The notes: generated by a model not told the origin, from the letters alone. A stretch of DNA of 15,874 nucleotides from Candidatus Hydrogenedentota bacterium (GCA_029974275.1 JARKSN010000209.1:1-15874), one strand, 5' to 3'. Positions 10,232 through 13,878 are shown, counted from the stretch's first letter. A program made the numbers and translations.

Positions 10232-10945
10232 TCACAGCATGTTGTGCGATTCGAGGAGCGCGGTATCGGCCAGTATGGCGGCGGTAGGACCGTCGGCGGC
10301 GACGCGGCCTTGGGATAGCAGGATGGTGCGGGGGCATAGGGCGTTGACCAGCGGCAGGTCGTGGGTGGCGACGATCATCGTGGCGGAGAGCTGCCGCAGA
10401 AGGGCGATCGCGTCTTTGCGTCCGCGCGGATCGAGGTTGGAGGTCGGTTCGTCGAGAACGACGATGGCCGGGCGCATGGCCAGCACCGTTGCGATCGCCG
10501 CGCGCCGTTTCTGCCCCTGACTGAGGTGGAACGCGCACTTGTTTTCAGCGCCGTCGAGGCCTACCGACGTCAAACATGCGCGCACGCGCGCCGCGACTTC
10601 GTTTTCGTCCAATCCCATGTTGCGCGGCCCGAATGCGATGTCGTCGAACACGGTGGGACAGAAGAGTTGATCGTCAGGGTTTTGAAAGACGAGTCCGACG
10701 CGACGGCGGATGTCGCGCCGCGAAGCGCGTTCGAGCCGGATTCCTTCCACCGTGATGGTTCCGGAAGTGGGCAGAATCAAGCCGTTGAGATGCAGCAGCA
10801 GCGTCGATTTTCCGGCTCCATTGGCGCCGATGATCGCGACGCGTTCGCCATGGGCCAGTTCAAAAGCGATGCCGTGCAGCGCCGCGGCCCCGTCCGGATA
10901 GGCGTAGGATACGCGATCGATGGCAATCGCCGGTCCGTGGGTCAT
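10232..10945 (-). CDS. cbiO: ECF transporter ATPase (NikO/CbiO)
   Basis: Walker A GANGAGKST, Q-loop VFQNPDDQLF, signature LSQGQKRR, Walker B VVLDEPT and H-loop ATHD. ATGA overlap with the Q gene stop. Confidence 0.92.
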   Translation of the reverse strand: MTHGPAIAIDRVSYAYPDGAAALHGIAFELAHGERVAIIGANGAGKSTLLLHLNGLILPTSGTITVEGIRLERASRRDIRRRVGLVFQNPDDQLFCPTVFDDIAFGPRNMGLDENEVAARVRACLTSVGLDGAENKCAFHLSQGQKRRAAIATVLAMRPAIVVLDEPTSNLDPRGRKDAIALLRQLSATMIVATHDLPLVNALCPRTILLSQGRVAADGPTAAILADTALLESHNML

Positions 10946-11712
10946 GCCAACCCCCAGCGCACTGCCACGGCAAGACATGCCATGGCGGCGACGAATCCAT
11001 AGTCTTTCGCGCACATGGGCGCGCTGGTTCGCGCGGGCAGGCGTCCTTCAAAGCCGCGGGCGAGCATGGCCAGGTGAATGCGTTCCGCGCGGGCCCACGT
11101 CCGCAAAAAAAGCGTTCCGATGATTTGGCCGACGACGCCCGCGCGCCACAGCCAACGCCCTCCGTATCCGCGCGCATCGCGGGCGTGCTTCATGCGCAAC
11201 GCTTCGTCGGCGAGGACAAACACGTAGCGGTAGGCGAAGCCGACGGTCATCGTGAACGCCCGGGGCAACCCCATGCGTTCCGCTCCGTGCAAGAGATCGG
11301 CGAGCGGCGTTGTGCCGGTGAGCAGCGCGACGCTCAACACACCAATGACGCTTTTGACCGCCACATTCCAAAACACCAACAGCCCGGAATAGGGGATGCG
11401 CGGGCCGCCCACGCCAAGCGTATAGCCCCCGCTTGCATGCGGACCGTCGAAAAACGGCAGGGACACGCCGACCATCGCCACAAAGGGCAGGATAACGAGC
11501 GAGCGGCGCAGGAGATAGATCCACGGGAGGCGCGAGGCAACGGATGCAACCGCCAGAATCGCGCCATACCCCGCAAACGCGAGAAACGCCGAAGGAGGGG
11601 TGCTAACGCTGATGACCGTCAACGCCAGAAACGCGGCGATCTTCGCGCGGGCGTCCACGCGGTGAAGGGGACTGTCCAGGCGCGCATGGCGTTCAACGAC
11701 GTCGGGGTTCAT
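10942..11712 (-). CDS. cbiQ: ECF transporter transmembrane T component (NikQ/CbiQ)
   Basis: DSPLHRVDARAK start, several TM segments, YRYVFVL, two conserved ARG motifs (RDARG, AMLARGF) and RAERIHLAM. Confidence 0.92.
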   Translation of the reverse strand: MNPDVVERHARLDSPLHRVDARAKIAAFLALTVISVSTPPSAFLAFAGYGAILAVASVASRLPWIYLLRRSLVILPFVAMVGVSLPFFDGPHASGGYTLGVGGPRIPYSGLLVFWNVAVKSVIGVLSVALLTGTTPLADLLHGAERMGLPRAFTMTVGFAYRYVFVLADEALRMKHARDARGYGGRWLWRAGVVGQIIGTLFLRTWARAERIHLAMLARGFEGRLPARTSAPMCAKDYGFVAAMACLAVAVRWGLA

Positions 11713-12025
11713 GGAACGTTGCCGAGGCGCGGCGGCGCGCGGCCCATTTCGCCAAACCGAGTCCCGCGCCAAACGTCGCAAGGACGCCGGCAAAGCCCGA
11801 CAGGGCCGTCGCCATGGTTTCGCTTGCCACGCCGGGAGCGGCGTAATCGGGCGCGATCGCGAAGGCCCAGAGGGGCCGATCCACGGCGTCATGGCGAAGC
11901 CCATTCGCTTCCGTCACCTTCTCGAGGCCGTCGGGCGACGGCGACGCAAACGGCGACAGGAAGGTCGCCAGGATCAACGCGACCCCCAACGCCGCCGCAA
12001 GAAACCAGATATCGCGCCGGCTCAT
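11693..12025 (-). CDS. PDGLE-domain membrane protein (NikN-type accessory component), 110 aa
   Basis: MSRRDIWFLAAALGVALILATFLSPFASPSPDGLEKV...PDY... plus a second TM helix. ATGA overlap with the M gene stop at 12022-12025. It is the C-terminal part of ORF 11693..12628. Confidence 0.88.
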   Translation of the reverse strand: MSRRDIWFLAAALGVALILATFLSPFASPSPDGLEKVTEANGLRHDAVDRPLWAFAIAPDYAAPGVASETMATALSGFAGVLATFGAGLGLAKWAARRRASATFHEPRRR

Positions 12026-12696
12026 TCGTATGCCTCCTCGAGAGGCGGCGCGACGAGACCTTGGCGCCATGACGCGATCAAGTGAGGGCGAGAGGCCATC
12101 ACGGTCGAAAGAATCGCGACGGTGATGATGGCCTCGCCGATGCCGATGATGGCGTGAATGCCGGCCATTGCGGGCAGCGCCGCCTGCAACGGAATTGTGC
12201 CGGAAAAAGCCAGTTCGCCGGCGCATGCCGCCGACGCCAGGACGACGGAAGACCAGGAGGCCAACGCCGCGCTTGTCAAAAAGCCGGTTCGCGTCTGCGG
12301 CAGCAGGGCTTGGAGCGAACGGAACACCGCATACCCGCCAATCCCGCCGACGATGCCCATGTTGAAAATGTTGGTTCCGAGCGCGGTGAGACCGCCGTCG
12401 GCAAACAGCAAACACTGCAACGTCAACACGACCGTCATCACGAGGCAGGCGTTCAAGGGACCCAAGGCGATCGCCGCGAACAGCGCCCCCAGAAAATGAC
12501 CGCTCGTGCCGGCGAACACCGGGAAATTCAGCATCTGCGCCGCGAAAATGAATGCCGCCGTCACGCCAAGCAAGGGGGCATGATCCTCTTGGAGCGTCTT
12601 GGCGGCGCGGGCCGCAGCCCTTCCGCAAACCGCCGCAGCCACGGCGAACGCGGCCACGTTCACCGGCCCGCTCACCATCCCGTCGGGTATGTGCAT
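12022..12696 (-). CDS. cbiM: ECF Ni/Co substrate-binding S component (NikM/CbiM)
   Basis: Diagnostic N-terminus MHIPDG, plus FAAQMLNFP, GTSGHFLG and LFADGGLTALGTNIFNMG. SD GAGGTG. Confidence 0.94.
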   Translation of the reverse strand: MHIPDGMVSGPVNVAAFAVAAAVCGRAAARAAKTLQEDHAPLLGVTAAFIFAAQMLNFPVFAGTSGHFLGALFAAIALGPLNACLVMTVVLTLQCLLFADGGLTALGTNIFNMGIVGGIGGYAVFRSLQALLPQTRTGFLTSAALASWSSVVLASAACAGELAFSGTIPLQAALPAMAGIHAIIGIGEAIITVAILSTVMASRPHLIASWRQGLVAPPLEEAYE

Positions 12697-12718
12697 GGAA
12701 TCACCTCTTGCTTGTCAG

Positions 12719-12745
12719 GTAATACGTCGCATACGAACGTAATAC
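12719..12745. promoter_or_regulatory. NikR-type operator GTAATAC-N13-GTAATAC
   Basis: Two identical quasi-palindromic 7-mers (12719-12725, 12739-12745) 13 bp apart, covering the predicted TSS of the MNQO operon. Matches the general GT-N3-AC, 13-bp spacer form of NikR boxes. Confidence 0.7.
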
Positions 12746-12746
12746 C

Positions 12747-12775
12747 ATTATGCCGCATGCCGCGCCCCGAAGCAA
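12747..12775 (-). promoter_or_regulatory. Sigma70-type promoter TTGCTT-N17-CATAAT of the MNQO operon
   Basis: -35 at 12775-12770 and -10 at 12752-12747, 1 bp from the operator. Confidence 0.6.
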
Positions 12776-12884
12776 CAAAACGCGCCTGGACGCCGCGCCG
12801 GGGGGCGAGGGGAGCATAGGGGGAAGAAGCCGTTTCCTCAAAGCGTTTGATCCAACACGAACCGTCGCGGCTAGGTCGCGCGCC

Positions 12885-12923
12885 AAAAAAGGAGGAGCGG
12901 CGGGCCTTGGGTGCCCGCCGCTC
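12885..12923 (-). terminator. Rho-independent terminator
   Basis: Perfect 11-bp stem GAGCGGCGGGC/GCCCGCCGCTC with a 7-nt loop, followed on the minus strand by CTCC-TTTTTT. Confidence 0.72.
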
Positions 12924-13124
12924 GTTGCGGGGAGTATCCGAAACCTTTTATTCGTGCGTCTTTTGGCGCAAGATGCCACGAACCATTGTCCTGAAACCAT
13001 TGGGCTGCGGTCTGTTGGCCTCAGTACTCAGCAAAATGGGCCGTTCCTGGCCTTGGTTTGCAAACGACGACATGGTGCATTGCCGTCGTTGGCCCGGTCC
13101 CACCCGCTGCGGTATTCGGATACC
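12885..13124 (-). ncRNA. Candidate structured small RNA (~190-nt folded core, ~240 nt with terminator), family unassigned
   Basis: Bounded by a consensus promoter and a terminator. The predicted 5' end GGUAUCCGAAUACC pairs with GGUUUCGGAUACU (12945-12933). Internal hairpins AACGACGGCA/UGUCGUCGUU and UUCGUG/CACGAA. No ORF with a well-placed SD. Confidence 0.55.
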
Positions 13125-13130
13125 GGCCCC

Positions 13131-13159
13131 ACTATATCGCAACATATGGTGCGTGTCAA
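13131..13159 (-). promoter_or_regulatory. Sigma70-type promoter TTGACA-N17-TATAGT
   Basis: -35 at 13159-13154, 17-nt spacer, -10 at 13136-13131; 11/12 consensus. Confidence 0.75.
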
Positions 13160-13323
13160 TCTATTTCTCAAAGGTCATTTTTGGACATGAATCACAATAT
13201 ATAGATTTGATGTAAAGACCAACACATCATATAGGTGCTTCTTAAAAAGAAAAAAGGATATGACCGAAGCTAAAGCGCTCTCGCTTCGTGGTGTCGTCTT
13301 TCGTCAAACACAATATATTGTGT
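13137..13323. promoter_or_regulatory. Cluster of four NrdR-box-like operators
   Basis: Compared with consensus acaCwAtATaTwGtgt: tcgCAACATATGGtgc (13137-13152), tcaCAATATATAGatt (13192-13207), acaCATCATATAGgtg (13222-13237) and acaCAATATATTGtgt (13308-13323, perfect 16-bp palindrome). Confidence 0.68.
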
Positions 13324-13464
13324 AATCTTGCGCTTCTGGAAAATGGGGTTGTCGGTCAGGCTGCCCTTTGCCTCGCGCTCGGAAGACCTGCAGGCGGACA
13401 CAGCGGTCGCCTCGAACGCGACGAGGACGAGAAAAGCTGGTTTGTCACGGAAGAGGGGAGCAGG

Positions 13465-13504
13465 AGAAAACAAGAAGCGCTGGTTTTTGTGAAACCAGCG
13501 CCTC
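13465..13504 (-). terminator. Rho-independent terminator of the small peptide gene
   Basis: 13-bp stem GAGGCGCTGGTTT/AAACCAGCGCTTC (one G-U pair) with a 5-nt loop, followed by TTGTTTTCT; 26 nt after the peptide stop codon. Confidence 0.7.
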
Positions 13505-13530
13505 AACAAACGAGTCTAATGATTCGAGAA

Positions 13531-13623
13531 TTAGAACCACCAGAACAGCAGCACCGCAAGCGGAAGCAGAATCCACCAGCCCCAGCTACCGAAATCAAAC
13601 AGATCTTTCCAATCCTTCTCCAT
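13531..13623 (-). CDS. 30-aa Trp-rich small membrane peptide MEKDWKDLFDFGSWGWWILLPLAVLLFWWF
   Basis: SD AGAAGGAG 7 nt before the ATG, TAA stop, its own promoter and terminator. Charged N-terminus plus a ~17-aa hydrophobic helix. Below the ORF-track size cutoff. Confidence 0.75.
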   Translation of the reverse strand: MEKDWKDLFDFGSWGWWILLPLAVLLFWWF

Positions 13624-13716
13624 TGTCTTTCTCCTTCTGTGTTTTCCTGACCGTTACGCCCCTCTCTGGGCAGGCGGTTTGTTCACTATCGAAAAACCGC
13701 CACCGATAACGAGCAT

Positions 13717-13745
13717 ACTATAATCATTTGTACAGGCAATGTCAA
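13717..13745 (-). promoter_or_regulatory. Sigma70-type promoter TTGACA-N17-TATAGT of the peptide gene
   Basis: -35 at 13745-13740 and -10 at 13722-13717; predicts a ~87-nt 5' UTR. Confidence 0.75.
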
Positions 13746-13878
13746 CTCTTTTTCATTACTACCCAAATACTCCCATCGCATCACTATTTTTTGCAGCGGA
13801 CCGGGAGGCCGGGCGGCGAGTTTTCCGGGAGATCCGCGTCGGCCTCTTGTCTTTTGGCTCTTGCCCCCGATTTTTGGA

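Follow-up and report, generated by a model that had tools for sequence, protein, structure and literature searches.

Does the minus-strand interval that precedes a cobalt/nickel transporter operon in a Candidatus Hydrogenedentota bacterium specify a leader of that operon or a gene in its own right, and to which regulatory circuit does it belong? The interval, positions 12885–13159, is part of a 15,874-nt stretch of DNA (GCA_029974275.1 JARKSN010000209.1:1-15874; hereafter the window). An initial annotation made from the sequence alone proposed that it encodes a stand-alone, possibly undescribed non-coding RNA of ~240 nt. The element is a previously undescribed, stand-alone structured RNA family with a new regulatory affiliation: the promoter and its upstream region carry an array of boxes for NrdR, a repressor that senses deoxyadenosine triphosphate (dATP) and ATP.

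A structured RNA gene with its own promoter and a terminator-like hairpin

The promoter TTGACA-N17-TATAGT reported in the initial annotation is present on the minus strand with 11 of 12 consensus matches. It is the sole promoter-like site in 12400–13700, against a mean of 0.6 in shuffled sequences. The minimum free energy (MFE) fold of 13130–12885 has an energy of −110.2 kcal/mol compared to −86.1 ± 5.0 kcal/mol for 200 dinucleotide shuffles (z = −4.86), none of which folded as well. The fold reproduces the architecture that had been drawn by hand, including a closing stem whose start coincides with the predicted 5′ end at ~13124 and a multibranched interior composed of a 10-bp hairpin (13090–13063), the P2 helix CAGCGGGUGGG/CCCAUUUUGCUG (13109–13099 with 13040–13029) and the UUCGUG/CACGAA stem. 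Near the 3′ end of the RNA lies the expected 11-bp GC-rich terminator-like hairpin, which was recovered by scan and is followed by CTCC and six T residues. The direct repeat CAAUGGUU also is present as proposed (13002–12995 and 12988–12981), though it probably is incidental because the second copy sits in a junction that is variable among homologues.

Conservation and covariation across the phylum

The structured RNA is conserved across the phylum Hydrogenedentota with one copy per genome. A BLAST search with the 286-nt region revealed a single copy in the genome of origin, in which the other matches were chance alignments of 15–43 nt, and clear homologues in most of 60 relatives, with the 3′ half best conserved. 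The promoter layout of −35, N17 and −10 (TAnnnT) is the same in 30/30 sequences including that of the window (the spacer was assigned as 18 nt in one), and lies at a fixed distance from the conserved start GGUGUCUG.

Collection of homologues and inspection of covariation, which had been suggested as a check on the annotation, were carried out with two alignments. Alignment A1 consisted of 29 homologues aligned with MAFFT on sequence only, and its consensus structure was taken as the majority vote over individual minimum-energy folds. Changes on both sides were found in 33 of 66 pairs, 88.9% of cells were pairing compared to 29–43% with the partners slid, and none of 500 shuffles reached the structure on any of five measures. 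Alignment A2 comprised 66 distinct sequences from across the phylum; compensatory changes occurred in 56 of 66 pairs and 90.1% of cells paired versus 38–47% when slid, counts that lean towards structure because A2 was fitted to the covariance model.

The covariance model R1, which was built from A1, was applied to 135 genomes of the phylum and recognized the RNA in 112 of them, including 74 of the 86 that are at least 90% complete. The matches were single and full-length in nearly every genome, ranged in length from 150 to 258 nt and were spread over families f1 (44/53), f3 (14/14), f13 (10/10), f5 (13/15), f11 (17/23) and f10 (5/6); no match came from three families that are represented by one genome each. 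At E ≤ 1e-4 no match was obtained in 121 sampled genomes of Planctomycetota, the phylum of a Phycisphaerae genome, and in five genomes of other phyla the model elicited short hairpin-like matches only, of at most 34 bits. Genome contigs also were scanned with the 3′-hairpin motif: among the matches listed, 75 of 80 loci were GC-rich chance hairpins from other phyla with at most 34 bits under R1 and five were true (155–236 bits), all from Hydrogenedentota, Hydrogenedentes or Hydrogenedentales, although a scan of this type cannot show restriction of the RNA to the phylum.

An array of NrdR boxes at the RNA promoter

The spacer of the RNA promoter holds a 16-bp palindrome with the conserved form CCACnATATnTTGTGG. 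When a first matrix derived from the boxes of 30 RNA promoters was used on the whole genome, the top sites were the distal box A of the window (Table 1), a tandem pair directly before nrdR (C334:20887-21333), whose product possesses Zn_ribbon_NrdR and ATP-cone domains, and a site before nrdD. Circularity was avoided with a second matrix, constructed from the regions upstream of nrdR in 30 genomes of the family, which contributed 39 distinct boxes. With this nrdR-derived matrix, 18 of 30 loci were found to have box pairs at a distance of 31–34 nt ahead of nrdD, and seven more had one box there. At the fixed place in the RNA promoter spacer, scores of at least 14 bits were obtained in 25 of 30 homologues; just 42 of 4.38 million genome positions score so. 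Among 40 further loci from other families, 39 had a promoter box (at least 9 bits) and 36 had upstream boxes. For the distal box, at ~−156 from the −35 element, 26 of 30 homologues exceeded the 95% null. The start-to-start distance between boxes 2 and 3 was 28–32 or 41–42 nt in the 11 homologues in which each of them attained at least 6 bits. In control analyses, the best score upstream of the genes for 6S RNA, transfer-messenger RNA (tmRNA), ribonuclease P (RNase P) RNA and signal recognition particle (SRP) RNA was 7.4 bits, and a spacer box accompanied 2 of 92 TTGACA-N17-TAnnnT sites in the genome.

In PMC12051234, NrdR with dATP and ATP is described as binding pairs of 16-bp boxes with spacers of 14–17 or 24–27 bp, and four-box arrays are known from the nrdAB region of L. 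monocytogenes. There and in other abstracts, ribonucleotide reductase genes are presented as the specific targets of repression by NrdR. The NrdR passages of PMC3848588 describe nrd-boxes in P. acnes at nrd operons only. Boxes B and C of the window are 30 nt apart start-to-start with a 14-bp spacer, and so fall in the 14–17 bp class that is bound by NrdR (PMC12051234).

The operator motif and its conservation across families make the RNA a probable member of the NrdR regulon, with binding of NrdR to the array in vivo predicted. As box D takes up the spacer that separates −35 from −10, bound repressor would shut out RNA polymerase. With sufficient dATP, NrdR is likely to occlude the promoter; when deoxynucleoside triphosphates (dNTPs) are scarce, the RNA would then be induced alongside NrdD, the anaerobic reductase. 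NrdR repression therefore would cause the RNA to be made together with ribonucleotide reductase under deoxynucleotide scarcity. NrdD is the only reductase class found, as a search of the genome for a class I/II enzyme (PF02867) gave no match.

Several features weigh against this regulatory assignment. Promoter box D lacks a partner at the canonical 15–16 bp spacing, the start of the nearest neighbor being 51–69 bp off in most homologues, and tight NrdR binding needs both boxes of a pair according to PMC12051234. Repression from the promoter box therefore would need looping or higher-order binding, and this is the principal difficulty in assigning the promoter to NrdR. In addition, the weaker boxes 2 and 3, at ~−90 and, in the zone of box C, at ~−58, were above the 95% null in 14 and 16 of 30 homologues, respectively.

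Boxes of this type also occur elsewhere in the genome. The other promoter with a spacer box is at C298:22730 on the minus strand (locus L300; 18.2 bits), ahead of fliQ-fliR-flhB-flhA. The nrdD gene on contig C268 (locus L194:2480-3000) has a canonical NrdR box pair that overlaps the −35 and −10 elements, followed by a 5′ leader of ~470 nt; nrdD leaders in relatives are 125–580 nt and are not conserved in sequence. Further high-scoring NrdR-like boxes were noted at C325:8974, C24:2434, C167:27258 and 27316, C57:13398 and C222:15092. Their settings include a position before ftsK, three boxes before a B12-binding radical-SAM gene, and two boxes in regions without a clear gene. One precedes a PEP-CTERM-type AAA ATPase gene, which has an nrdR-type promoter and a leader of ~240 nt.

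Architecture of the RNA

The features of the gene and its operator array are collected in Table 1.

Table 1. Coordinates of the RNA, its structural parts and the NrdR boxes in the window.
Feature	Position	Strand	Description
RNA	12885..13126	-	~240 nt; predicted 5′ end ~13124, 3′ end in U run 12890-12885; covariance model match 12885-13126, 167.8 bits
Promoter	13131..13159	-	−35 at 13159-13154, NrdR box D in spacer 13152-13137, −10 at 13136-13131
P1 closing stem	12934..13124	-	13124-13111 with 12945-12934; surrounds four-way junction; 10/13 pairs with compensatory changes (sequence-only alignment)
Arm P2/P2b/P3	13029..13109	-	P2 10/10 and P3 7/8 pairs covary (sequence-only alignment)
P4 hairpin	12991..13024	-	stem CUGAGGCC/GGUUUCAG, loop AACAGACCGCAGCCCAAU; 9/9 stem pairs covary (phylum alignment)
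P5 hairpin	12950..12982	-	UUCGUG/CACGAA in the window; conserved loop element CUUGCGCC
Unpaired element P1-P6	12924..12933	-	UCCCCGCAAC in the window; family form CUCCCCGCA
P6 hairpin and tail	12885..12923	-	stem 12923-12895, loop CACCCAAGG, CUCC tail, U6
NrdR box A, distal	13308..13323	.	perfect 16-bp palindrome, 25.9 bits (nrdR-derived matrix)
NrdR box B	13222..13237	.	13.0 bits (nrdR-derived matrix)
NrdR box C	13192..13207	.	18.9 bits (nrdR-derived matrix)
NrdR box D	13137..13152	.	promoter spacer, 14.2 bits (nrdR-derived matrix)

The conserved single strands of the RNA are all C-rich across the phylum. The internal loop of the P2/P2b/P3 arm (13062–13053) has the family consensus CCGCAGCCCA, from which the window copy, UGCAAACCAA, has diverged. 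The same element recurs in the P4 loop, which is 15–18 nt among homologues and in which CAGCCC is nearly invariant phylum-wide. The family form of P5 is a CCGUG/CACGG stem with CUCUUGCGCC in the loop. Between P1 and P6, the CCCCGCA element is invariant in 29/29 aligned homologues and nearly so across the phylum. Hairpin P6 in its family form has the loop UUCCCAAGG, and a C-rich tail such as CCUCC leads from the hairpin to a U run; the loop motif CCCAAG and the C-rich tail are conserved among homologues, and 10 of 12 stem pairs covary phylum-wide, with one pair represented by GC in 33 and AU in 32 sequences. The window hairpin passes the scan for intrinsic terminators with a gap of 4 nt from stem to U run, the gap being ~6–8 C-rich nt in most homologues, some of which are without the U run. 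A loop-loop pairing between P5 (CUUG) and P6 (CAAG) was rejected: no covariation was apparent and the P5 loop was unchanged where that of P6 had changed.

Short forms of 150–190 nt in other families are without the P2-P3 arm and retain P1, one CAGCCC hairpin, UUGCGCC, CCCCGCA, P6 and the tail. In the short forms of family f11 (loci L284-L288 and L295), CUUGCGCC pairs with GGCGCAAG to form a stem that presents the CAGCCC loop instead of occupying a separate hairpin loop. Both conserved elements therefore are retained in a different structural arrangement.

Independence of the gene from its surroundings

The genes on the minus strand at 10232–12696 of the window encode CbiM, a PDGLE-domain (CbiN-like) protein, CbiQ and an ATP-binding cassette (ABC) ATPase, which constitute a cobalt/nickel transporter operon of the energy-coupling factor (ECF) type; the search revealed no riboswitch ahead of it. 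In the window only, a gap of 190 nt separates the RNA from cbiM, which follows on the same strand, and the hairpin and U run of the RNA could attenuate transcription, so that a role as 5′ leader or attenuator (riboswitch) of cbiMNQO had to be weighed. The initial annotation had judged this role improbable and had assigned the operon a promoter of its own. The latter was not confirmed, as the scan gave no second site at threshold and a weak TTGCTT-N17-CATAAT was evident by eye only. The former held: the leader explanation is close to refuted, since cbiM, cbiQ, glgA and tsaE are within 1.5 kb at 0/29 homologous loci, no cobalamin, NiCo or other riboswitch matched at E ≤ 10, and the promoter bears an NrdR operator, not a metal-responsive one. 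The homologous loci share no downstream gene family and one upstream neighbor recurs in only 8–9 of them; the flanking genes that can be named include a heptosyltransferase-like gene, a pilin-like gene and genes for an ArsP permease, ferredoxin and RimK. The RNA thus is not a cbiMNQO leader because the neighboring genes vary between genomes. A cobalamin or other riboswitch of cbiMNQO likewise was rejected with no aptamer match and no conserved position before cbi genes.

Two other parts of the intergenic DNA merit description. A direct repeat of GTATTAC, with the copies 20 nt apart, is situated at 12719–12745 between the weak −10-like CATAAT (12753–12748) and the cbiM start (12696), and could serve cbiMNQO as an operator or as part of a leader. 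The section between the operator array and glgA (13324–13860) contains two terminator-like hairpins on the minus strand, 13544–13515 and 13504–13474, and open reading frames (ORFs) of 79–120 amino acids on both strands without a Pfam or NCBIfam match.

No conserved ORF was found within the RNA: of 30 sequences, 11 have an antisense strand and 3 a sense strand that is open for at least 90% of its length, and two shared frames with GTG starts are broken or shifted in many sequences. The possibility that the RNA is a messenger RNA (mRNA) that encodes a small protein, or that it has a dual function, consequently was rejected. One of these frames, of ~31 codons (VTLLRQ...), is open in many homologues, but it is cut to 9–18 codons in 10 of 28 sequences and is shifted in others, its GTG is inside the P5 stem, and it lacks a ribosome-binding site and runs into the U run without a stop. 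From the other shared start, the products vary between 4 and 79 residues and show no similarity. Moreover, length differences among homologues are not multiples of three and whole arms are lost.

The region is represented in metatranscriptomes, in which 13 runs hold 0.41–0.44 of the sampled words of 12860–13340. Contigs of 191, 211 and 200 nt with 100% identity were obtained from RNA libraries of three of these runs from three studies and correspond to 12927–13117, 12911–13121 and 12929–13128, all inside the RNA; a related homologue is represented by a 160-nt RNA-library contig with a depth of 74.6. This evidence for transcription is weakened by the fact that RNA libraries can contain DNA, and contigs from such libraries cannot fix the transcript ends. 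The three RNA runs had no contig over 12600–12898 or 13129–13500, and DNA run X3 was likewise fragmentary (12951–13119 and 13139–13423). The uncovered flanks therefore are no evidence for transcript ends.

Search for known RNA families

The Rfam comparison that had been put forward alongside the initial annotation gave no match in the RNA when Rfam 15 (4227 families) was applied to the whole window at gathering scores. At E ≤ 10 in 12600–13400, there again was no match in the RNA, including to 6S, cobalamin, NiCo and other riboswitches, and none of 20 divergent homologues matched a family at E ≤ 0.1. Stray matches comprised a chance PhotoRC-I hit on the opposite strand inside cbiM and a transfer RNA with a weak YrlA overlap downstream in homologous locus L262.

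Four familiar identities had been set aside in the initial annotation, and rightly so. The genome has its own 6S RNA (C106:10988-11171, 60.3 bits), small SRP RNA (C81, 72.2 bits), tmRNA (C112, 179.3 bits) and RNase P RNA (C248, 313.8 bits), all on other contigs and the last three above their cut-offs. Identity with 6S RNA (RF00013) was rejected as the model did not match and as fold and covariation show P1, P2/P3, P4 and P5 meeting in a four-way junction, with the 3′ hairpin set apart, where 6S RNA would form a rod around a large central bubble. SRP RNA, tmRNA and RNase P RNA gave no model match in the window. Membership of 6C RNA (RF01066) was excluded by the lack of an Rfam model match. A CsrA sponge of the CsrB/RsmZ type also was discarded: the conserved loops are C-rich and the alignments have no repeated loop GGA, though CsrA is encoded. 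Searches of the published literature outside subscription journals found neither a non-coding RNA under NrdR control nor any paper on an RNA of Hydrogenedentota.

Proposed function

The RNA is tentatively viewed as the founder of a trans-acting family within the NrdR regulon of deoxynucleotide supply that pairs through C-rich single strands, a proposal to which we attach slightly less than an even chance. Action in trans is the firmer part and is fairly likely. The four-way junction would serve as a scaffold that displays C-rich strands, namely the CAGCCCA loops, CUUGCGCC, CCCCGCA, the CCCAAG loop and the 3′ CCUCC tail. The C-rich loops and the CCUCC tail may pair with G-rich Shine-Dalgarno-like sites of several mRNAs independently of Hfq, and this pairing would couple some other process to dNTP supply. 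No gene for Hfq was found in the genome, which is rated 100% complete. Base pairing through the loops and tail is suggested by analogy, is possible rather than probable, and forms the weakest step. The analogy is with 6C RNA of Actinobacteria, the C-rich loops of which bind several mRNAs, including that of dnaB, without a chaperone, as set out in PMC6486639.

A number of results tell against pairing with mRNAs. When the conserved single strands were compared with nrdD leaders in 14 genome pairs, duplex energies were no better than those of shuffles (z −1.5 to +2.0), with the CCCCGCA element included in the scoring for only 1 of the 14. Direct pairing with nrdD mRNA was rejected on these energies and because relatives do not preserve the 9-nt complement with which the genome's own nrdD leader begins. 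A genome-wide search for 10-mer complements near start codons yielded dozens of candidates on uncertain ORFs and was uninformative. Furthermore, invariant motifs of 10–17 nt on an elaborate conserved scaffold are more typical of RNAs that bind proteins or ligands than of small RNAs that pair through a seed, and long invariant motifs would suit a protein-binding RNA equally well.

The main rival is an RNA that acts as a scaffold or decoy, as 6S and CsrB do, and sequesters or assembles a conserved protein, with NrdR still gating its output. The binding sites would be the repeated CAGCCCA and CCCAAG loops and the invariant P6 hairpin. The long invariant loop motifs, which number two or three per molecule and occupy similar places at the 3′ side of loops, fit this explanation, as does conservation of the P6 sequence and loop far past the needs of a terminator while the stem still covaries. 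So do the single copy per genome across the phylum, as with housekeeping ribonucleoprotein RNAs, the contigs in several RNA libraries with a related copy at a depth of 74.6, and the failure of the nrdD-leader and genome-wide complement searches to detect an mRNA target. Nevertheless, there is no candidate partner or conserved neighboring gene, the loops are without GGA repeats of the CsrA-sponge type despite the presence of CsrA, and the RNA is without a 6S-like rod in a genome that has a true 6S RNA elsewhere. Overall, protein binding is considered somewhat unlikely.

An independently acting ligand-sensing or catalytic RNA is quite improbable. One version would be a riboswitch-like molecule that senses a nucleotide-related metabolite, acts in trans and relies on P6 as a platform for expression or stability. 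In its favor, the complex four-way junction covaries strongly and the nucleotides of its junction and loops are highly conserved, as in aptamers and ribozymes, and the regulon context of nucleotide pools suggests candidate ligands. However, there is no consistent downstream gene to control, many families do without the large P2-P3 arm, no pairing seen in the fold competes with P6, and no riboswitch or ribozyme family matches.

The resemblance of the 3′ domain to the 3′ end of 16S ribosomal RNA prompts a final and very unlikely alternative. The 10–12-bp hairpin and single-stranded CCUCC/U tail would mimic helix 45 and the anti-Shine-Dalgarno sequence, and the RNA would be a decoy made on NrdR derepression. 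Such a decoy might titrate Shine-Dalgarno sites of mRNAs or a factor of the 16S 3′ end and slow translation initiation at low deoxynucleotide levels; if true, this mimicry would be a direct RNA link from dNTP supply to protein synthesis. The 16S gene of the genome (C113:80-1465; model positions 9–1387) ends at a contig end, with the anti-Shine-Dalgarno tail unassembled.

For the proposal that is tentatively preferred, a trans-acting RNA of the NrdR regulon with C-rich pairing surfaces, the implications are as follows. No other gene in the genome, reductase genes included, was found with NrdR boxes as strong or as numerous as those ahead of this structured RNA. If the regulatory assignment is true, the dNTP-sensing circuit of NrdR reaches to an RNA effector. 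The boxes would then offer a route to the function of a new RNA family from a phylum for which metagenome-assembled genomes are the chief source. The covariance model can be used to annotate the RNA in genomes and metatranscriptomes of Hydrogenedentota, those sampled being from wastewater, activated sludge and anaerobic digesters.

Comparison with known systems

The array is akin to the NrdR operators of nrd operons in that it has the same 16-bp palindrome as is found before nrdR and nrdD here and in that boxes overlap the core promoter; the multi-box arrangement also recalls the four-box nrdAB region of L. monocytogenes, as described in PMC12051234. The target differs, being a non-coding RNA, as does the geometry: the promoter box is alone in the spacer and its partners start 51–69 bp or more upstream.

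Among known RNAs, 6S RNA (RF00013) is similar in size, in having one copy and a strong promoter of its own, and in the recovery of contigs from RNA libraries. The present RNA is distinguished by its multibranched junction in place of a rod with a central bubble, by the absence of a model match and by the existence of a true 6S RNA elsewhere. Cobalamin and NiCo riboswitches that precede cbiMNQO share merely the window position, that is, a structured RNA with a hairpin and U run upstream of a cobalt/nickel ECF transporter; no model matches, and the cbi association is missing at 29/29 homologous loci.

The 6C RNA (RF01066; 6C/B11 in M. tuberculosis) is much smaller and consists of hairpins with C-rich loops. 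Like the RNA described here, it is a stand-alone, phylum-wide RNA of GC-rich genomes with C-rich loops as functional surfaces, a role that for the present RNA is proposed. PMC6486639 depicts 6C RNA as needing neither Hfq nor ProQ and as tied to DNA replication genes such as dnaB. In contrast, the RNA of the window belongs to a family of 150–258-nt junctions with longer invariant motifs and an NrdR operator array, and has no sequence or model similarity to 6C RNA.

Comparative genomics also has produced orphan structured RNAs that are restricted to single phyla, such as Bacteroidales-1, Chloroflexi-1 and Acido-1. These resemble the present family in being stand-alone, confined to a lineage and defined by covariation. 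Unlike them, the RNA of Hydrogenedentota, which matches no such model, can probably be assigned to a specific transcription factor, NrdR, and to a physiological signal.

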